DNA of 64,000 nt from Candidatus Cloacimonadales bacterium (GTDB taxonomy: Bacteria; Cloacimonadota; Cloacimonadia; Cloacimonadales; JAIOQZ01), in the NCBI GenBank assembly GCA_963674825.1, contig OY771587.1, forward strand, positions 3,264,001 through 3,328,000, in the 5' to 3' direction. The position numbers and the translations under genes are program-made. A model generated the notes under the pieces. The model was not told the DNA's origin, ran no database searches, and saw only the letters and a program-made list of their open reading frames with translations. Below are positions 50,001 to 60,932 of this stretch, one piece after another; the first letter of the stretch is position 1; the number at the start of each line of letters is the position of its first letter.

Positions 50001-50257
50001 GGTGGAATCCCATGGGGGAGAACCAGGCAATTGACCGGGCGCATCGTATCGGGCAGACGAAGAAGGTTAACGTCTATAAGCTGATTACGCTCGGGACAGT
50101 TGAGGAAAAGATTCTCAACTTGCAGCGTGATAAGATCGAGATGTTCGAGAACATCATTGAGGGTGGACAAAACATCCTGCGTAAACTTGATGTCGAGGAA
50201 CTGAGAAATCTTTTTGAATATACGGCAGGGGAGGGGCATCATGAAGAGCTTTCGTAA
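47039..50257 (+). CDS. SWIM-SNF2 family helicase
   Basis: N-terminal CTIC...[42 protein letters not shown]. Confidence 0.93.
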
Positions 50258-50657
50258 GGAATTATGGTTTGAAACTGACACGCGTCGAAAAATGGTGCAC
50301 ATTACGCCGCAGATCAAGGAGTGTGTGCGCGAAAGTGGAGTTCAAGATGGACTCTGTCTTGTCAACGCCATGCATATTACTGCGAGCGTATTCATCAACG
50401 ATAACGAATCAGGTCTGCACTCCGACTACGAGAAGTGGCTGGAAAAACTCGCTCCGGAGAAGCCTTACAGCCAATATGCTCATAATGGATTCGAAGACAA
50501 TGCCGACGCGCATCTGAAGCGAACGGTCATGGGGCGGGAGGTTGTGATAGCGATCACAGACGGTAAGCTTGACCTTGGTCCGTGGGAGGCGATATTCTAC
50601 GGAGAGTTCGACGGAAAGCGCCGTAAGCGTGTACTGGTGAAGATTATCGGTGAATAG
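50241..50657 (+). CDS. yjbQ: YjbQ (UPF0047) family protein
   Basis: [32 protein letters not shown]. Confidence 0.9.
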
Positions 50658-50724: not shown

Positions 50725-50802
50725 CGGGATGTAGCGCAGTCCGGCTAGCGTACTCGAATGGGGTTCGAGCGGTCGCAGGTTCAAATCCTGTCATCCCGAC
50801 CA
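50725..50802 (+). tRNA. tRNA-Pro(GGG)
   Basis: Acceptor CGGGATG/CATCCCG, anticodon arm CTCGA-ATGGGGT-TCGAG, GGTTCAAATCC, encoded CCA. Confidence 0.96.
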
Positions 50803-50847
50803 TTTTTATTATCTAAATCCATTGTTTGCAGCAACTTACGCAACTCC

Positions 50848-51021
50848 TGTAAAGTGACACCTACATTTTCCACTTTGTGACAGCATGTTTTCCTTAATTC
50901 CACTTCTTGAAGTGACAGGAAATGCCTTTAACTCCCGCACCATCTATCACATCAATGCAGTCACTTTCCCAAGTTGCAAGTGACGGCAGTCTTTCCTTCC
51001 AGTGACGGCAGTTTTTCCATC
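50848..51021 (+). mobile_element. Candidate transposon end (Tn7/Tn5053/CAST-like) or integrase arm: TGT terminus plus six [AT]GTGAC-core repeats
   Basis: TGTAAAGTGAC at 50848; cores at 50853, 50876, 50911, 50979, 51001 (direct) and 50960 (inverted); consensus roughly AGTGACRGCA-N-TTTTCC. Confidence 0.5.
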
Positions 51022-51058
51022 AAGGAAATCATGCTGGCACTTTTCGTGTTCAAGAGCT

Positions 51059-51406
51059 GTGGTACCCGTCGTCACTTAAAGGGTTCATGTTGTAGTCGTC
51101 CTCGAGTTCTTTGCCGCCACCGGTGAACTTGGTTTCGGGGTCGTCGTACACGCTACACAGGCCGGGCATTTTCATCCCGAACGGGTAGATAATGGTCTTC
51201 CTGCATGATGTCAGGCCCGTTGGCTGCTGGTTTGAAGCTCACACGCGTATTCCCCAGTTCGCTTTGCTTTCATCAAATGACCGTGGTTTCATGCGTGGAG
51301 TTATTATTATCGTTGGTCATTTGATGCCTTTGATGTCGTAGACAAAGCCGTATGTCCGACTGTTTTCATCATACGCGATACGCCCTTCCGGTGTAATGAA
51401 ATTGAA
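51059..51406 (-). pseudogene. Decayed second Rhs-associated core fragment without toxin domain
   Basis: 51059-51257 aligns to 52793-52990 (81 bp identical: 51108-51188 = 52842-52922); extra base at 51189; ~70-bp interruption; 51329-51406 encodes FITPEGRIAYDENSRTYGFVYDIK. Confidence 0.85.
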
Positions 51407-51497: not shown

Positions 51498-52142
51498 TTA
51501 CGTTTTGAGACTGAGAGCACGTTTCCAGCTTCTATTTTCGCGTTCGCTATATGTGAAATAAACCCTTCCTTTATGGATTGAGTGTAGAAGTTTCAATATG
51601 GGGAAATTTCTAGGCATTACAGTAATTGTGTAATTTTCATATTCCACTCGAACAAGGCAATACGGGTGTCGTCTGTTAATAACTATGTGAGGTTCTTTGT
51701 CAGTACTACCCGAGATTATTGACTTTATGCAAGCCGGCAATTCCTCATCGTCAAATACAGTATAGCTCACAGGTTCAAGATTATTGATGTTGCTTTCTAC
51801 TAAAAGATCTGAACATTGCATTAACTTGTCGAGGTTCCAAAACTGCTCAATTCGTGTTTTGAACCCATAAGTACGAATTTTATCTCCGATTGGGACCATG
51901 ATAACGGCAACAATGATTGTGATAATTGTAAACCATGTAGCTACTAAAGCTGCTTCCTTTTTCTTCTTTCTTATTCCAGCTATACTCAAATACAGCACAA
52001 CAAGATAAATCAAGGGAAGAAAGCAGAAGTCAATGCTATATCTCTGTGAATCATTTAGTATATTATAACCATCATAAAACAGTAGTGAAGCTCTGAGAAT
52101 CTGGAAAATCGTAGTCGCAATTATAGCACGTATGATGATCAT
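51498..52142 (-). CDS. AT-rich membrane protein, candidate immunity protein
   Basis: Starts 8 bp after the Rhs stop; three N-terminal hydrophobic segments; AT-rich like the toxin tip. Confidence 0.55.
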   Translation of the reverse strand: MIIIRAIIATTIFQILRASLLFYDGYNILNDSQRYSIDFCFLPLIYLVVLYLSIAGIRKKKKEAALVATWFTIITIIVAVIMVPIGDKIRTYGFKTRIEQFWNLDKLMQCSDLLVESNINNLEPVSYTVFDDEELPACIKSIISGSTDKEPHIVINRRHPYCLVRVEYENYTITVMPRNFPILKLLHSIHKGRVYFTYSERENRSWKRALSLKT

Positions 52143-52150
52143 TTTCCTAT

Positions 52151-53311
52151 CTACTTTGTTTTGTACCGATAACCGTATTTTGCCCAATATATTGCTCCTG
52201 AATTTGCTGGAAACTCACGATACTTAAAGATATGAGTAAGCTTCCATAAGTGAATATCAGTCACCATATCGAACTCAGTCAGAATCAGATTCTCACGGTA
52301 TAGTGCGCCTATACCAATATAGTTAATTTGATCAGATCGATACCATTTCCCCATGTCAGCGACCACATAATGAACTTTGTTCTCGGCAGGAATATCAACA
52401 TTTTCATGGAAATCGCTATCAGCCTTCTGTGCTATAAACCAGAAGCCAGGGGGAATGTTTTTCCAGGGATCTTCACTATATAGCCTATCAAAATCATTGC
52501 GAAGCTCTTCTACTTCGGCATTGATATCATCTAGATTAATGAATGCCATATTTATCGTTGAAGCATCAACTCCCTGTTCAAGATAATCATCTTCATAAGC
52601 TCCCCATTCAGGTCCAATACCATCATCTTCATAATAATATGTCCCATCATTTCTGAGAACCGTTGTTGACCCATCTGGATCAATACAGTTTACGGGATTG
52701 TTTCGGCAATACAGGTATGGACTATGAAATTCCTGCACCGGATCGACCTGCTGCCATCGGCAGAGCTGCGGGTCGTAGTAGCGTGCGCCGTAGTGGTACC
52801 CATCGTCACTCAAAGGGTTCAGGAAGTAGTCATCCTCCAGCTCTTTGCCGCCACCGGTGAACTTGGTTTCGGGGTCGTCGTACACGCTACACAGGCCGGG
52901 CATTTTCATCCCGAACGGGTAGTAGTGATCTTCCTGTATGATATCAGGTCCGTTGGCTGCTGGTTTGAAGCTCACACGCGTATTCCCCAGGTAGTCTGAT
53001 ATGTCGTAAACAAACTCATATACTTTGTTGGTATCATCATACGTAATGCGCCCCTCGGATGTAAAGAGATATTTCAGAGCGCTGTCTTCGTACACGGCCT
53101 TTCCGTTGTAATACGTTGAACCGGTGAGGTCTCCCACTTTTATGTCGTAAAGCGCGTCGTTGTAAAGATTCTTCCGTAGCTTCGCGCCACCCCAGGCATA
53201 TTCGTACTCGATACGGTAGTCTTCGTAGGGAGTTTTTCTGAAGGTGATGAGCTTGGGGAGGTTAAGCTTGTTGTATTCGAGATCGATGCCCTTGTTCTCG
53301 TCGTGGATCAT
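52151..53311 (-). CDS. Orphan Rhs C-terminal cassette (Rhs-associated core plus polymorphic toxin tip)
   Basis: YNKLNLP, DYLGNTRV, HYYPFG, YHYGARYYDP, SPYLYCRNNPVNCIDPDG, then ~170 aa AT-rich tip. Confidence 0.85.
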   Translation of the reverse strand: MIHDENKGIDLEYNKLNLPKLITFRKTPYEDYRIEYEYAWGGAKLRKNLYNDALYDIKVGDLTGSTYYNGKAVYEDSALKYLFTSEGRITYDDTNKVYEFVYDISDYLGNTRVSFKPAANGPDIIQEDHYYPFGMKMPGLCSVYDDPETKFTGGGKELEDDYFLNPLSDDGYHYGARYYDPQLCRWQQVDPVQEFHSPYLYCRNNPVNCIDPDGSTTVLRNDGTYYYEDDGIGPEWGAYEDDYLEQGVDASTINMAFINLDDINAEVEELRNDFDRLYSEDPWKNIPPGFWFIAQKADSDFHENVDIPAENKVHYVVADMGKWYRSDQINYIGIGALYRENLILTEFDMVTDIHLWKLTHIFKYREFPANSGAIYWAKYGYRYKTK

Positions 53312-53326
53312 CAATCTTCACAAAAT

Positions 53327-53537: not shown

Positions 53538-56500
53538 CTACTCCCCGACCTTTTTCTCCATTCCCTTTCGCACTCCCACGGTCGTTTGATCGGTTGACGT
53601 TACGTAGTACCAGTATGAGAGAGCTGTGGCTGCGGAGATATCGGTGAAGGATGTAGTGAAAACAGGCCCGGCGACAACGGAGAATGGGCCATCGGGATTA
53701 TCGGCGCGGTACACTAGGTAACTCGTCGCTCCAGGTACGGAATTCCAGGACAGAACGACATCGAAGCCGCTGATATGCAGTATTACGTCAGTCGGTGATT
53801 CAAGACTCGTCAGATCGCCTAAATCATGAGGATCGGTGCCGTATGCAATCGCGAGTCCGTCGTATAGTGGACCACGATCACCATGGAATGTATAACAAAT
53901 CCCTTGGGAGCCATCGCTGCTTTCGATACCGACAACGCACTCGTCCAGTACAATGTCCTCATCGAATGACAGATATTGCATCTTGATTTTACCTGTATCG
54001 TACAGGATAACCTGAGCCGTCAGATTTCCCGGACCTTCTCCGGGGTATTCATGATAGTGAATCATGGAAATGACAAAAATCTGATTCACTCCCGAGGTGG
54101 TAGTCTGGTAATAAACATGGGTATCATCATCAGGATTGTCTTCGGGATCCATGTCATCCCAGAACCAGGCAATCAGGTCGTTGGGATCGTTTGAGCTGGG
54201 CAGTATGCTGTTGTTGTAGTAGCTGGAGCCGATGGAGCCATCGAAACTCAACCACCCATTGGAGCTGAAGTAAATCTCGTTATAGGAATTCCCGAAATAG
54301 GGAAAAGCGAATCCGATAGAAATGGGCGTATCGACAAATTCGTCATCGTCGGGAATAGACATTTCCGTACCAGTCGCGCTGATGTCGATCCAGTTGAAAG
54401 TGGGATAACTGGCAGCGCCGACCGCGCCAAGGCTGCTGTTGGAGAAGTAGTAGTATCCAGAATCTTCTGTCCCTCCGCCATAGGAGTAGTTCACACCCGT
54501 TGCGGTCAGAGGATAACTATGAACAACGCGTCCCTGATCGTCGGTGATGTCGAGACTGGCGTTTTTTTCTCCTTCGGTCAGCGGTGTGCAAGATACGTCG
54601 ATCTGGAGTAGTTCGGTGGTCAAACTGACGGGAATCGACAGATTCATCGTGAAATCGAAATCCCCGGAGTCCTGGCCGCTGATGGACACGCCATTGATGC
54701 CGATCGCGCCTAATCCGTCATTGTGAACCGAGAACGAAACCGGAGTGCTGGTCACATGCAAATCCACAACTCCGAACGCCGCCTGATTCGGTGTACAAAC
54801 GTAGTTTGGCGATGCCGGTGCCGACTCGATACTGACATCATCCATATAGTAGTTATATTGCGCCTGGGGAGAGTCTCCGTGCCAGCCAATAAAATAGGGT
54901 CCTGAAGTTTCCGGGATAAAAATGCCCGAATTCTCTGTCCACACCGTTGTATTCTGGATGTAACTGGCCAGATGGTGAACTGTAGCATCTGGATCCTGGG
55001 CATCCATAATCCAGACATCCAGATGATGAGGCGTGTGATAGGTTGAATAATCCCGCCCCCACCAGGACACTCGATATCCCAAGCCTGCATCCAGCCAGAC
55101 AGGTTTGCTATACAGCCAGTCATCGATCGGGCTGAGTTCGTAAGGCCCTCTCAACCAGGCGACCATCGTACCGGAATGCGCGTTAACGCTGAGGCTATTC
55201 GAAGACCAAGTTTTACCGTCAGCGTTCACGTCATCGACAATCCAACCGTTGGGAAGATCGGGAGCGATAAGGGCGTCAAAGTTTTCGAGGTAGGGTACGG
55301 TAGCCGGTGGGAGTGCAGTACCAGATAGAGGATATGTATGAGGCGTTCTAAGTATGGTGTCGGATATCTCCAGGCTGACAGTCTTCGCACCTTCGGAATG
55401 CGGTTGGAACCAGACTTCGATATCCAGATAACCGGTTTCGGGGATTGATGTCGGTAACGTCTGGTCATAAGCCAGTTTGAAATCCACTGTGTCGGCTCCT
55501 GCAAGATGGATGTTGTCGATGTCCAGGCTACCGCTTCCGGCATTTACGATACGAAAAAGCGATGGATCGGAAGATTGCCCTACAAACCACGGCCCGAAGT
55601 CATCGATTCCTACTTCACATGAATACATGGGTACGGTCGGTGTTTCCTCGATTGCGAAATCGTCGATTGCCATATCGCTGAGATTTCCCGGTACCAGGAA
55701 TCCCACAAATCGAATCCGCACAATACCCTGATACCCGTCAAGAGAAGCCAGACCGCGGTGCCACTGGTTACCCTGATCGCCACTCATGCCCCATACATCG
55801 GTCCAGACCGTGGATGCATATTCGTTGACCTGCACTGTCAACGATCCCATGTCTGCGCCATACATATGGTACCAGAAACTGATCCGTGGTATCGAGAGTG
55901 TGGATACGTCAATGTATGGACTAACAAGAATGGCATCTTCGTAGTTCGAACTTTCAGTCTCCGTGTACAAGTACTTTCCACCGCCGGTCATGTCATCCGA
56001 TGGTCCTGTATCTGGTGTTGGAGTGGAGTATTGGTTTATAATCCAGTCTAGGTTGTCATCCGTCTCCTGCACCCATCCGTCGGAAACGATTGTTCCAGGG
56101 GGCCAGGTATCGAAATTCTGGCTGTAGGGCGCTAGCTCGTGAGGAGCATAGACCGCGTTTCCTATCAGAGGAACAGTATGCACGGCTCGTATCATCGTAT
56201 CGTTTCTGTGTGCTGTGCGAGTCAGGTAGCCTGCATTATTCGGAGTTCGGGTCATGTTATCGGCAATCTGTAAGGTAGCGGTTTTTTCTCCGAGACTTTG
56301 CGGTGCGAAGGTTACATGCAGCGTATCGGTTTGCCCGGTGTTCAGCTCGATAGGAAAGGTTATCGGCTCAAGGGTATAATTACCCTCCGGATCATCGACA
56401 ATGGATATAGAACCTTCGTTGATGGTGAGGGTTCCTCCACCTATATTGGTGATGATGAAGTCCTGCGACTCGGTATCGATTGAGGGGACATCACCAAAGT

Positions 56501-59500
56501 CGTACTGATTGGGAATCGCGGCGAACACAGGTACATCCGCAGTATATTCGAGGGAAATATTATCGAAAGCTCTTCCTCTTAGTGGCAGGAATGCCCACCC
56601 TACCCGGCCAAACCGGAGCTGAAACTCGTCGCTGAATTGTTGTCCCGCATCAGCAAGAGTCTGGCTGACATTCAGACCTGTCACTTCGATCCAAGTGAAA
56701 TCCACGGGAGTATCATCGATATTGATAATCTGTATCCAGTCATCGGAAGTCGAACCTCGAACCCAGACACCATCTCCATACCAGTCGTCTTCCGCGTTAT
56801 AGTGCCAGAAACTGAGACTCACCGTGCCTGTATCGGTACTGTAATTGCTCAGATTGAGGCTGGCAGTCAGATAGTTGGTCCCCGGATCTCTAGTCCCATT
56901 GCAATCCATAGCCGCACAGTGCATCCCATTTTGCGCTGCGAAATAGGGGCAGGCAAACTGGAGTCGTGCGAGGCCTTCATGGAAATATTCCCATACAGGC
57001 AAACCATTCAAGATCACTTCTGATTCTTCATACAATTGCTGTGGGCCAACAGATTCGAAATCCTCGGTCCAGGGAAGAATCAGGGCTGTGTCTGGCACGC
57101 GCAGGGTCGTGAACGAGAAGGTGTCAGTGCGAATCCACTGAGTGCCGTCGAGAGTGGTTTCCGCTTGCCAGTAGTATCTTGTCAGGGGAGCCAGACCAGG
57201 CGGATACCAGGGAATGGATACATTCGAATATAGTGGGTTATTCGCCAGGTCCGGATCCTCCCCAAACCGGATGTTGATCTGGTTTGGTGTTTCGGCCATA
57301 TCCCAGCTCAGTGAAGTGTCGAGTGGTTGCTCCGAACTTTTATCGGCAGGCAGGAGATTGGTGTAATAGGGTCCCGTGGAGAACTCCCACGCGTCTCCCA
57401 GCCGGAATAGAGGCGGATCGAGTGTAGTGTTCCAACCCACCACATACCACTGGTAGTTAGTCAGATAGTCCACATTACATACGTAAGCGCCGTTTCCGCC
57501 TGGCGTAGCAGAGCCACCTGCTACGACCTGAACCAGATTGCCTGGCTCACCCAACCAGAGATCATAAGCGTCCGTATCCGGGCCAAATACCCACTCAAGT
57601 GAACAATCTACATTCTGGTTGCCGGCCCCGAAGACGGGAGCGATGAGTTGAGGAATTCCGGGGGTTCCCGCCTGGTATTGAAGGAAGCGTACATTAGGTA
57701 CATCCTTTAACACATACATGTGTTGGGCTGGAACCTGGGGGTCGAGCGTTGGATTGATGCCGCCATCGCTTTGCCAGGAGCAAGACCTGTTTGAATTCGT
57801 ATGCGTCGAATTGATTTCGGGTGAGTATGAAAAAGCGCCAGGCTCGTTCCACATACACACGTCGACGACGACATTGTCGACACCGTTCCAAATGAAAGGC
57901 GTGGTGAAATTCACGCCTGCCCATCCCTGGGATACGTTGAAATAGACAGGACCGGAATTGAATACTTCGATCAACCCGTCTCTGAGAAAGTAGTTATAGT
58001 AGTCAGCATGATAGTATTCTGGATAACCGGTGTGGCCAAGTCGAACACAGTATTGATCCTCATCCAATGCTGGAGCATGAGTCCAGTCCCATTGTATCCC
58101 TTCAATTGGTTCTCCTGCCACCATTCCCGCCGCCGTCAACTCACTGGCGTAATAGGTGGTTTGAGTGCGTCGGTTCAACCAGTAACCATGTGCGATGCAG
58201 TAAAAATCGGTCGTACCGTCACCGATTTCGAAATAGCCGTCTGTGGGCATGCTGGCCGTTCTAAGCAGCCTGGTTTCGCTATAGCTGATACCAGCGTCGT
58301 TGATAGCGTAGGCCCGATAGTGATAATCGGTGTCCGGTGTCAAACCCGATATGTTTATCATGAAGGGACCGTTTCCGAAACATCCAGAATCTTCAGTGAT
58401 GTTGTCCGTGATATCAGGCAAGTCGTCATGACTGTAACAGAAACCCCGCGCGTAGCAATCGCCAACGCCAGTGTCGAAGACAACTCCGCTGATATCGGCT
58501 GAAATGGTCGTGATGTTTTCGGCTCCGGAGGCAGCTACAAGTGGGGTTAAAGTGAAAACCGAAGAACACCAGTTGGAGGTGGTCCCTGTCATTGCGAAAT
58601 TATTGAGCGTTCCTTTATAGTTACCCGCATAATCAATGAGTTCATTAGGCAGGCCAGTGTTATCCTGCCCTGCGTTACCCTGATCAAAGCGATAAAAGGC
58701 TACAAGGCCGGGCTCATCCCCGGTTAACAAGGTGTTCATGTTGTTTTGTATCTGAGTCGGAGTCCGGCTTACGTTCCAGACACGAACATCATCAATTTGA
58801 CCCCGGAAGAAATGACCACTGTAACTGGCGTCCCGACCGATACTTGTTTCCATATTGAATTCAACCATTGCATGAGGCACGTTATGAGATACACCATATC
58901 CGTTTAAAAACACCGTTGCTCCCTGAGGAGAAATGACCAGCGCAACATGGTTCCATTCATTGTCCGTTAGATAGAGCCCTGTGGGAAACCCCGAATTCTC
59001 ACTATCCCAGTCATATCTCAATTCGTTATCGCTTCGCAGGAATATTCCTGCAATTGCCGTATCTTGGTGATAATTTTCTGTTCGGGAAATGATAATGCCT
59101 GCATTGTCACTCTGGACTCCGTTGGGCTTGACCCAGGCTTCCATGGTTATCGTGTAGGATTCCAGGTTCAGGTCCGGAAGGCTGACGTAATCATTGCCAC
59201 CATCAAAATCCAGACAGTTACCGGAAGGAAACCCCGCCGTGGTATACTGTTGGGTTTCTCCATAACTGATACCACTGCCATTGACAGCATATGCCCGTGT
59301 ATAATAGGTCGTTCTGATGTCCAGACCATTTACCGTCAGAGTAAAGGGTCCGGTGCAAAAGCTGCCGTTTTCCTGAACGGTGTTGTCTCCGATAGTAGGA
59401 CAATCGCTTGTGCTGTAACAAACCCCACGTGTCGTAACGTCTTCGGAGCCGATACTGAAGATCTCGCCGCTGACCTGAGCGGAAAACGCTCCGATGTTTT

Positions 59501-60932
59501 CAACCTCGCTAGTGGTTAGAATGGGCGTAGTGGCCAAGCCGGTGAAACACCAGTTGGAGGTAGTGCCGTTCAATGCAAAGCCGTTCAGGGTTCCCTTATG
59601 ACTTCCGGCGTAATCGATGAGTTCGTTGGGCAGGCAGGCGTTATCCTGCCCGGCATCACCCTGGTCAAAACGATAACCGGCAATAAGACCGGGCTCGTCC
59701 CCATTTATCAGGGCGTTCATGTTGTCCTGAATTTGGGTTTGGCTTCGTGCGGTGTTCCAGAAGCGGACTTCGTCCATCCCCGCTCTGGCGAAATCCTGTA
59801 GCGAGCCGTTGAAATTCCGGCATCCGAGGTTAATCGGGTCGGAATTGGTATTCAACACCCCGTTCTGGGCGTCGGAATCCACAAGGTTTCCATTTACATA
59901 CAGATTCTGGAATGCACCATCATAGGTGAAGGCGATATACTGCCAGATACCGGCGGTCAAGTATGTTCCTGAAAAAACTCTCGCTGGGATGAAGGTATCA
60001 GCGGTCAGATAGACCCCATCAAGATACAGGCGGAATGTGGCCTCCGAGGCGACTTCGTTGTATTTCGTGATTAAAAACTGTAAGCCGGAATCCTGGGGTT
60101 TCAGCCAGAATGAGATGGTGAAGGTGTTAAAATTCAGATCGTCCATATGGTCGATTGAAATATAATCGTTGCCGCCATCAAATTCAAGGAAGTTACCGGA
60201 TGGCGAAATAAGCGGAGCGGTGGAGTCTGTCCAGGCATCGGGTAGTGTGAAGTTGTTCAAAGTTCCATCATTGTTGTGGATAGTAAGGTCCTCCAAAGTA
60301 GTTCCTCCGGATTGATCGAAACGGTAATAAGCGACCAGACCGGTTTCGTCAGCATCTATCGGATGTTGCATGTTCTGCTGGATTTGGGTCTGGCTACGGG
60401 CGATGTTCCAGATGCGGACTTCGTCGATCTGACCGTCAAAAAAGCCATAACCTTCAAGATGACCAATATATACCTGATCGGCGATATCACCGATGGAAAA
60501 GCTGCCAGACAGTCCAGAACCCACCTCCTGGCCGTTCAAGTAGATGCGTTGAGTGACGCCGTTATAAGTGGTTGCAAGGTGAATCCAAGTGTTTGTAGGC
60601 AGGATTTGTGTCGTTGGATTGTAGAAGTGGCGGGTTCCGTCCGTTTCCTCCAGTTCAAACCAGATTGTTCCATCGATACGGATCTGGATGCTGTATCCAC
60701 CGTTGGTTTCATAGCCTTTGGCGATGATGCCAGGGTAGCTCGTCAGGTTTTCCATCCTGATCCAGGCCTCGAGCGTAATCTCTGTGACGATGTCCACGGA
60801 AGGGCTATCGGGCATTGAAATGAAATCCTCGCTACCGTCGAAAGAGAGGCAGTTTCCTGCCTGGGCGAAAAGACTGGTAAGACTAAAAGTTACCATGATT
60901 AATAACAAGAAATTGCTTAGGTCTCGATTCAT
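53538..60932 (-). CDS. 2464-aa secreted multi-domain surface protein (3 LamG-like, FN3-like, MAM, choice-of-anchor D/J-like, nidogen-like and C-terminal FN3-like domains)
   Basis: Signal peptide; FDGxxD[YF]...G.IDEVRIWN three times; MAM TGPSDD...GGKYLYTE...FWYHMYG...AIDD; Ig-like F.I.N.G...L.I modules; IAWFWDDM. Confidence 0.85.
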   Translation of the reverse strand: MNRDLSNFLLLIMVTFSLTSLFAQAGNCLSFDGSEDFISMPDSPSVDIVTEITLEAWIRMENLTSYPGIIAKGYETNGGYSIQIRIDGTIWFELEETDGTRHFYNPTTQILPTNTWIHLATTYNGVTQRIYLNGQEVGSGLSGSFSIGDIADQVYIGHLEGYGFFDGQIDEVRIWNIARSQTQIQQNMQHPIDADETGLVAYYRFDQSGGTTLEDLTIHNNDGTLNNFTLPDAWTDSTAPLISPSGNFLEFDGGNDYISIDHMDDLNFNTFTISFWLKPQDSGLQFLITKYNEVASEATFRLYLDGVYLTADTFIPARVFSGTYLTAGIWQYIAFTYDGAFQNLYVNGNLVDSDAQNGVLNTNSDPINLGCRNFNGSLQDFARAGMDEVRFWNTARSQTQIQDNMNALINGDEPGLIAGYRFDQGDAGQDNACLPNELIDYAGSHKGTLNGFALNGTTSNWCFTGLATTPILTTSEVENIGAFSAQVSGEIFSIGSEDVTTRGVCYSTSDCPTIGDNTVQENGSFCTGPFTLTVNGLDIRTTYYTRAYAVNGSGISYGETQQYTTAGFPSGNCLDFDGGNDYVSLPDLNLESYTITMEAWVKPNGVQSDNAGIIISRTENYHQDTAIAGIFLRSDNELRYDWDSENSGFPTGLYLTDNEWNHVALVISPQGATVFLNGYGVSHNVPHAMVEFNMETSIGRDASYSGHFFRGQIDDVRVWNVSRTPTQIQNNMNTLLTGDEPGLVAFYRFDQGNAGQDNTGLPNELIDYAGNYKGTLNNFAMTGTTSNWCSSVFTLTPLVAASGAENITTISADISGVVFDTGVGDCYARGFCYSHDDLPDITDNITEDSGCFGNGPFMINISGLTPDTDYHYRAYAINDAGISYSETRLLRTASMPTDGYFEIGDGTTDFYCIAHGYWLNRRTQTTYYASELTAAGMVAGEPIEGIQWDWTHAPALDEDQYCVRLGHTGYPEYYHADYYNYFLRDGLIEVFNSGPVYFNVSQGWAGVNFTTPFIWNGVDNVVVDVCMWNEPGAFSYSPEINSTHTNSNRSCSWQSDGGINPTLDPQVPAQHMYVLKDVPNVRFLQYQAGTPGIPQLIAPVFGAGNQNVDCSLEWVFGPDTDAYDLWLGEPGNLVQVVAGGSATPGGNGAYVCNVDYLTNYQWYVVGWNTTLDPPLFRLGDAWEFSTGPYYTNLLPADKSSEQPLDTSLSWDMAETPNQINIRFGEDPDLANNPLYSNVSIPWYPPGLAPLTRYYWQAETTLDGTQWIRTDTFSFTTLRVPDTALILPWTEDFESVGPQQLYEESEVILNGLPVWEYFHEGLARLQFACPYFAAQNGMHCAAMDCNGTRDPGTNYLTASLNLSNYSTDTGTVSLSFWHYNAEDDWYGDGVWVRGSTSDDWIQIINIDDTPVDFTWIEVTGLNVSQTLADAGQQFSDEFQLRFGRVGWAFLPLRGRAFDNISLEYTADVPVFAAIPNQYDFGDVPSIDTESQDFIITNIGGGTLTINEGSISIVDDPEGNYTLEPITFPIELNTGQTDTLHVTFAPQSLGEKTATLQIADNMTRTPNNAGYLTRTAHRNDTMIRAVHTVPLIGNAVYAPHELAPYSQNFDTWPPGTIVSDGWVQETDDNLDWIINQYSTPTPDTGPSDDMTGGGKYLYTETESSNYEDAILVSPYIDVSTLSIPRISFWYHMYGADMGSLTVQVNEYASTVWTDVWGMSGDQGNQWHRGLASLDGYQGIVRIRFVGFLVPGNLSDMAIDDFAIEETPTVPMYSCEVGIDDFGPWFVGQSSDPSLFRIVNAGSGSLDIDNIHLAGADTVDFKLAYDQTLPTSIPETGYLDIEVWFQPHSEGAKTVSLEISDTILRTPHTYPLSGTALPPATVPYLENFDALIAPDLPNGWIVDDVNADGKTWSSNSLSVNAHSGTMVAWLRGPYELSPIDDWLYSKPVWLDAGLGYRVSWWGRDYSTYHTPHHLDVWIMDAQDPDATVHHLASYIQNTTVWTENSGIFIPETSGPYFIGWHGDSPQAQYNYYMDDVSIESAPASPNYVCTPNQAAFGVVDLHVTSTPVSFSVHNDGLGAIGINGVSISGQDSGDFDFTMNLSIPVSLTTELLQIDVSCTPLTEGEKNASLDITDDQGRVVHSYPLTATGVNYSYGGGTEDSGYYYFSNSSLGAVGAASYPTFNWIDISATGTEMSIPDDDEFVDTPISIGFAFPYFGNSYNEIYFSSNGWLSFDGSIGSSYYNNSILPSSNDPNDLIAWFWDDMDPEDNPDDDTHVYYQTTTSGVNQIFVISMIHYHEYPGEGPGNLTAQVILYDTGKIKMQYLSFDEDIVLDECVVGIESSDGSQGICYTFHGDRGPLYDGLAIAYGTDPHDLGDLTSLESPTDVILHISGFDVVLSWNSVPGATSYLVYRADNPDGPFSVVAGPVFTTSFTDISAATALSYWYYVTSTDQTTVGVRKGMEKKVGE
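58568..59780 (-). repeat. Internal tandem duplication of a LamG+FN3-like block in the surface-protein gene
   Basis: ~58568-58790 and ~59548-59770 encode FDQGNAGQDNTGLPNELIDYAGNYKGTLNNFAMTGTTSNWC and FDQGDAGQDNACLPNELIDYAGSHKGTLNGFALNGTTSNWC. Confidence 0.8.

Follow-up and report, generated by a model that had tools for sequence, protein, structure and literature searches.

The segment from 50848 to 51058 of the window, by which we mean the whole 64,000-nucleotide stretch of DNA analysed here, is the orphan right end of a lineage of Mu-like transposable prophages of the Cloacimonadota. The reading that accounts best for our data is that this lineage prefers sites after tRNA and tmRNA genes, which it would reach without TniQ/TnsD or a CRISPR guide, and we give it a probability of about 0.7. 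A previous sequence-only reading had placed a transposon end at this same position next to a tRNA-Pro gene, and coordinates and sequence agree with it in this respect. The features of the region are the following:

50214-50657, plus strand: yjbQ (UPF0047; PF01894, TIGR00149), host gene 5' of the tRNA, syntenic before tRNA-Pro in G002 and G003
50725-50802, plus strand: tRNA-Pro(GGG), the RNA gene preceding the phage end (ARAGORN)
50803-50847, unstranded: host spacer of 45 bp, ending in ACTCC, a potential target-duplication half for which no partner was found
50848-51058, plus strand: truncated right end (attR) of a Mu-like prophage, inward from the terminal TGT, by similarity to the G001 ends; the prophage would be on the minus strand
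50851-50893, plus strand: outer pair of putative transposase-binding sites, 50851-50870 and 50874-50893 (profile scan and motif map)
50909-51043, mixed strands: inner putative binding sites 50909-50928 (+), 50948-50967 (-), 50977-50996 (+), 50999-51018 (+) and 51024-51043 (-) (profile scan)
51059-51257, minus strand: orphan RHS-core fragment adjoining the truncated end, at the breakpoint of the remnant; 93% identical to 52793-52990
51498-52187, minus strand: 229-aa ORF after the RHS gene, a possible immunity protein by position; no Pfam or NCBIfam family at cut-off
52151-53314, minus strand: RHS repeat-associated core protein of 387 aa whose C-terminal domain is unassigned, putative antibacterial polymorphic toxin (TIGR03696, 51.7 bits, cut-off 32.5)
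53538-60932, minus strand: 2464-aa LamG/MAM/Ig surface protein (domain searches), of a family present at 15 loci in the genome
61327-63600, plus strand: TPR-sigma54 activator paired with the surface-protein gene (domain search)

The end starts with TGTAAAGTGACAC at 50848, 45 bp past the CCA of the tRNA and directly after ACTCC. GTGAC cores begin at 50854, 50877, 50912, 50980 and 51002, with an inverted core at 50960; two spacings are of 23 and 22 bp, and TTTCC closes four of the copies. All these elements had already been recognised in the sequence-only reading, in which the preceding A or T was counted (50853, 50876, 50911, 50979 and 51001), and the profile scan added a seventh, inverted site at 51024-51043. 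The architecture expected of a DDE-transposase end, with multiple putative binding sites of about 20 bp, was therefore borne out. This cluster of cores is not a product of chance, since the genome, a single contig of 3.89 Mb that is 99.6% complete, contains 1862 (A/T)GTGAC cores but at just three places four or more of them on the same strand within 200 bp, all three being phage ends: the one in the window, a second copy of the same end and an end of a sister phage. Two further copies of the end are found in the genome (89% over 149 bp and 86% over 174 bp), one located 61 bp after tRNA-Val(CAC) and one lying directly against a cas2 gene of which only the 3' half is present. The end is present in 10 of 40 relatives at E<=0.001; in another search 13 of 14 matches were to Cloacimonadales/Cloacimonadota genomes, and a metagenome contig in run X1 matches window positions 50847-51058. 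The same tRNA-Pro(GGG) bears the end in G001, G002, G003 and G006, and stands without it in four of the five further relatives compared (G004, G005, G007 and G016).

The closest counterparts of the end are in G001, namely an end at tRNA-Pro (91% over 211 bp) and the right end of an intact prophage of 34,853 bp (90% over 174 bp). The left end of that prophage starts with TGTAAGTTGACACCC, and its genes follow from there in the order S24 repressor, a small ORF that we take to be Ner-like from its position, DDE transposase A, AAA+ ATPase B, a tandem winged-helix ORF, DUF3164, terminase small and large subunits, Mu-F, cargo, portal, an XkdF protease fused to a capsid-like part, methylases and tail-like genes. 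The A and B genes are known from such relatives, none being contained in the remnant in the window. A matches PF09299 with 67.6 bits and phrog_310 with E 2e-92, B matches AAA_22 and phrog_296 (E 2e-25), and the candidate catalytic residues D286, D353 and E401 are conserved in 29 to 31 of 31 A sequences. The best GenBank phage matches of A are annotated transposases of 22-33% identity. When A sequences shorter than 450 aa were excluded, A and B of the elements chosen by protein similarity (see below) formed one clade each (support 94/99 and 98/97). Members measure 30.5-34.9 kb, with the repressor at the left and virion and packaging genes between the ends. The prediction that elements of this kind make 5-bp target duplications proved right for the family, an exact duplication being present in 6 of the 14 elements with both ends mapped and absent from 8, a count in which two elements were scored with two alternative ends each. 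By the three features tested, that is, the A/B proteins, gene content and size, and the short duplication, the lineage belongs to the transposable phages, but it departs from them in its target pattern. The head module, with its XkdF-type protease fused to a capsid-like domain and its PF04860 portal (L035:6742-8478), is unusual for a Mu-like phage and is conserved in this lineage and in its sister.

No cognate A was found in the genome of the window, the only A/B genes there being those of the sister lineage (A 47% identical), which has different ends. Three Mu-like prophages of the sister lineage reside in it (G000:C1:990529-1025458, about 2869000-2902922 and about 3775100-3811199), the first being bounded by a TCTGA duplication and carrying the defence-type cargo BrxL, DUF7863 and PAPS reductase. 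A mosaic prophage in G002 (G002:C19; L110, L109), located off tRNA genes, combines an A and a right end of sister type with a B that is 70% identical to that of the tRNA clade, and no winged-helix ORF was detected in it.

A census with a right-end pattern free of tRNA sequence, run on 232 genomes of the phylum, rendered 29 matches in 14 genomes, or 27 sites once two stacks were merged. At 15 of the 27 sites the right end lies at most 250 bp downstream of a tRNA or tmRNA gene of the same sense, and at 17 of 27 at most 800 bp, while such tRNA-downstream positions make up 0.14% of the genome of the window. A tRNA in any other arrangement within 1.5 kb was seen at none of the 27 sites. As controls, none of 11 right ends of the sister lineage and none of 21 left ends follow a tRNA, one of the latter having a tRNA cluster that reads away from it; the nominal Fisher p values, 0.002 and 2e-6, are overstated because the genomes are kin. 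Since the census pattern was derived from ends already seen, many of them at tRNAs, elements were also chosen by A/B protein similarity. Of the ten elements so chosen whose right end was mapped, eight follow a tRNA or tmRNA at 41-712 bp (six at 41-205 bp and two more at 359 and 712 bp) and two do not; the 41-bp case is a viral contig in which the tmRNA was recognised by 12 nt matching its 3' end. A looser pattern gave 24 matches in viral contigs, 23 of them unrelated, and in another pattern search 5 of 25 matches lacked the terminal T(G/A) and look like chance.

At 17 sites the outermost recognisable end is found 28-87 bp from the 3' end of the RNA, in 8 cases at 42-50 bp. Counting the distance from the terminator was also tried and abandoned: three hairpin-bearing sites have longer distances (72, 76 and 87), but a fourth has 42. 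At least seven RNA genes are used, including tRNA-Pro (GGG, CGG, TGG), Val(CAC), Asn, Arg(CCT) and tmRNA, so that of the proposed homing to tRNA-Pro the recurrence downstream of tRNAs holds and the specificity for tRNA-Pro does not. The spacers, mostly 62-80% AT, measure 45, 50, 63, 65 and 48 bp at the Pro-GGG sites and differ in sequence too, which indicates that several of the insertion events were separate. Truncated ends are stacked at five tRNA sites, which merits attention since Mu avoids inserting beside itself (PMC7350765).

The remaining 10 of the 27 sites have no tRNA in the available flank. Three of these have a different inner sequence and probably represent another subfamily, as judged from the sequence; at one the flank is limited to 171 bases, another adjoins a left end, two are located inside sequence resembling the left end of the sister lineage, and one is the cas2 copy of the genome of the window (copy C). 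Two full prophages with duplications, G031a and G134a, are likewise off tRNA. A search with Rfam of 17 loci for other RNA landmarks at off-tRNA sites detected tRNA and tmRNA only.

Several loci have peculiar arrangements. In G031 (L083:14438-14639) a right end follows a duplicated tmRNA 3' end at about 165 bp, the intact tmRNA lying 9.6 kb away, and in G006 right ends are found three times (L155, L156, L157) 40-200 bp inside sequence resembling a sister left end. In G004 (L171:1579-1800) tRNA-Pro(GGG) is followed by tandem repeats resembling its 3' end, and G007 (L170) has, upstream, several tRNA-Pro-like matches at intervals of about 270 bp. In G003 a left and a right end stand head to tail with a 2-bp spacer (ACA GC TG) on two occasions (L041:3877-3880, L044:1659-1662), a junction of circle type or else the product of an insertion that fell 2 bp outside an older end and duplicated GCTGT.

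The census sees resident prophages only, not fresh insertions. Among these residents the near-random target choice that is a trait of Mu-like phages is not observed, given the proportion within 250 bp after a tRNA, and the oriented insertion downstream of a conserved site that is a trait of Tn7-like elements is observed loosely. Our results point to a lineage that probably prefers to insert 30-90 bp downstream of tRNA and tmRNA genes, the right end facing the RNA gene. The combination of many tRNA species and loose distances fits a feature shared by tRNA loci rather than a reading of the TnsD type. B could be loaded next to something common to these loci, be it sequence conserved in the 3' arm, a structural feature of the DNA or a protein of host or phage bound there, and A would then insert roughly one B-oligomer footprint away. 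To judge from the distances and sites, such an aim would be leaky and imprecise, and later copies would enter earlier ends and give rise to the stacks.

It could also be the case that the same phage inserts near randomly, as Mu does, and that survival makes the pattern. DNA after tRNAs would be harmless and AT-rich, as the spacers mostly are; read-through from a tRNA into a left end would switch on the early A/B operon, with death of the lysogen, whereas transcripts entering a right end would be antisense to the late genes, and recombination between copies would then pile up remnants. The sampled elements are indeed all long-term residents, off-tRNA insertions with duplications exist, the distances are loose and reach 205, 359 and 712 bp, and insertions of Mu itself are more frequent in the leaders and trailers of tRNAs than in the mature part (PMC7350765). 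Killing by read-through could moreover account for the orientation, but not for the contrast with the sister lineage, which has the same gene order, resides in the same genomes and follows a tRNA at none of its 11 right ends. The several-hundred-fold enrichment in the narrow 28-87 bp band is also hard to derive from harmlessness, given how much more intergenic DNA there is elsewhere, and the stacks show that the same spot was entered repeatedly. We therefore consider survival alone an unlikely explanation, one that still has to be taken seriously beside a preference at the step of insertion.

The identification as one end of a tRNA-Pro-homing Tn7/CAST-like transposon, with toxins and surface proteins as cargo, has become highly improbable. 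The TGT terminus, the multiple sites, the fixed orientation and the adjacency to tRNAs do resemble Tn7 homing, B has a weak match to TniB, and non-autonomous mini-elements with cargo exist (6.7 kb at the tRNA-Val of the window's genome and 1.4 kb in G036). Nevertheless, the intact members carry A/B as well as genes for heads and packaging and are thus transposable prophages, and TniQ, TnsD, TnsA and Cas remained unmatched in the 109 ORFs of two duplication-bounded members as well as in the scanned ORFs of the G001 member. Whole-genome searches for PF06527 (TniQ) and for TnsA were empty, searches in which the controls were silent as well. The genes that follow are likewise doubtful as cargo. 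Homology to right ends stops at 51058, with no left end or duplication after it, and the counterpart in G002 of the 3238-aa LamG gene located beyond the window lies outside the left end of the element present in that genome. Genes of LamG type occupy 15 genomic loci, 11 of them more than 50 kb from any such phage end, and three of the five RHS cores follow tRNA-Pro(CGG), where no phage end was detected. The 6.7-kb mini-element at tRNA-Val (L006:3147-9835, G000:C1:1663147-1669835; 85% conserved in G002) carries RelA/SpoT-RyR-TPR, NUDIX and DUF4062-AAA-TPR genes, possibly a defence module.

The other identity suggested, an arm of a tyrosine-integrase att site at tRNA-Pro, agrees with the tRNA adjacency and with repeats in both orientations, and can be practically dismissed, as the 3'-terminal 14, 17 and 20 bases of the tRNA are single-copy in the genome, the nearest of its three integrase genes is about 600 kb away, and relatives have 5-bp duplications and a DDE transposase. 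Guidance by RNA was also considered: with 59 tRNA/tmRNA queries against seven elements, the best matches were of 14-16 nt (E 0.016-0.047), equally so in the sister lineage, and none was above chance. No Cas effector, array or homing spacer was found in the scanned members, and the 20 CRISPR spacers of the window's genome do not match these phages.

That genome has a CRISPR operon of the Type I-E-like kind (L007:127-4700, G000:C1 about 1820100-1824700) with a Cas5-HNH fusion (PF09704 + PF01844), cas6, cas1, cas2 and 18 repeats; a Cas5-HNH of a Cloacimonetes bacterium has already been described (PMC10910872). Copy C (L007:17500-18070, G000:C1:1837500-1838070) directly borders the 3' half of another, diverged cas2 that has a leader and a four-repeat array, the 5' half of this cas2 being absent from the genome. 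At G000:C1:1974546-1974801, about 1 kb after tRNA-Arg(ACG), a cas6 fragment, one repeat and an end-like TATAAAGTGACAC are found.

The end in the window retains 211 bp of a full end of about 530 bp, which in G001 has 12 site matches, and its homology ends against the orphan RHS fragment. As anticipated from the window, no second end is near. Neither a left end for this copy nor an ACTCC partner was found in the complete genome, which leaves the proposed ACTCC target duplication without its other half; within 200 kb there is one ACA-ACTCC candidate, without end sequence, and the one left end that the genome contains belongs to the tRNA-Val copy. A look-alike of TGTAAACTGACAC, located 34 kb downstream, was rejected as second end, being inside a coding region, with no further sites and no matching duplication. 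The DNA after the tRNA-Pro end corresponds to a different host region in each of G001, G002 and G003, which fits a breakpoint arising from deletion or from recombination between copies. We infer that the end in the window is a rearrangement breakpoint and that this copy would have lost its body through an adjacent deletion or through recombination with another prophage copy.

Concerning the genes beyond the breakpoint, the 387-aa RHS protein leads in the Atlas to clusters in which 17% of the members have Ntox44. Three more RHS-core cassettes stand directly after tRNA-Pro(CGG) (G000:C1:707444-710475), with no phage end, so that RHS arrays gather behind tRNA-Pro genes in this genome. On the other side of the tRNA, two tandem S41 tail-specific proteases are encoded upstream of an SNF2 helicase (window:42965-46732).

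Mu, the D3112/B3 group, KS10 and the Leptospira prophages share with this lineage the repressor-ner-A-B order, DUF3164, terminase, Mu-F, portal, a size of 30-35 kb, a short duplication and TG or TA termini, TA termini being described for the Leptospira prophages (PMC8705779). The transposable phages described integrate near randomly (PMC8705779, PMC5977238), whereas most residents of the present lineage follow a tRNA or tmRNA, right end first, and the head module differs too, in its PF04860 portal and in the fusion of its XkdF-type protease with a capsid-like part. The closest precedent among phages is the Pseudomonas saltovirus Ab30/2P1, likewise a Mu-like phage at a set distance from a host landmark, which inserts 55-61 bp from a conserved palindromic host element (PMC5977238); in that case, however, hotspots take 5% of the events, there is no orientation bias and the landmark is BIME/REP, not a tRNA. 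The tRNA-homing Tn7-like elements PmcCAST, McCAST and CyCAST, with a TnsD of TniQ domain, insert at 29 +/- 1 or 30-33 bp (PMC9881144, PMC10293859). They resemble our lineage in their position downstream of tRNA genes, single orientation and stacking, and differ from it in that here no TniQ is found, many tRNA species are used among close relatives, the distance varies and we are dealing with a phage. CasMu-I and CasMu-V combine Mu-type A/B with a proposed target selection, with an HTH gene in CasMu-I, and a homing site is reported at 68 bp from their right end (PMC10910872). The lineage is not CasMu: its scanned members have no cas gene or array, and the seven elements compared have no guide-like tRNA match above chance. 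No tRNA-targeting transposable phage was found in the openly available articles searched.

The gene right after B encodes two winged helices; 11 of the 15 members of the clade have it in frame with DUF3164. Its position recalls that of tniQ, which in Tn7 lies after the ATPase gene. The structural model has a pLDDT of 80-93 over the winged-helix part, its best match (Z 10.7, rmsd 2.0, 65 aligned residues) being to generic winged-helix chains, and no TniQ fold appears among the listed matches. The split form of the winged-helix/DUF3164 protein is found in both full off-tRNA prophages, but also in G001 at tRNA-Val, and the gene occurs in lineages that are not at tRNAs as well. The tandem winged-helix protein is a weak candidate for the selector. 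It is possible, if doubtful, that the clade evolved, apart from Tn7, a homing in one orientation behind many tRNA and tmRNA genes that is free of TniQ and CRISPR and in which the small phage-encoded winged-helix/DUF3164 protein recognises a feature that tRNA genes have in common and loads B.

Mu is the classic example of random insertion. It has been described as having dropped the target-selector partners kept by Tn7 (PMC7350765). Oriented landing behind many tRNAs without TniQ or a guide would represent a new route of target choice in the MuA/TnsB family and, if so, a compact system of three genes (A, B and a small DNA-binding protein) able to move 30-35 kb. The sister lineage, near-identical, present in the same genomes and not at tRNAs, offers a ready comparison. 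Moreover, remnant ends would account for rearrangement breakpoints at tRNA loci in these bacteria. If homing through the winged-helix/DUF3164 protein were true, this would be a phage that joins lysogeny at safe sites, as in Tn7-like elements, to the spread of Mu.
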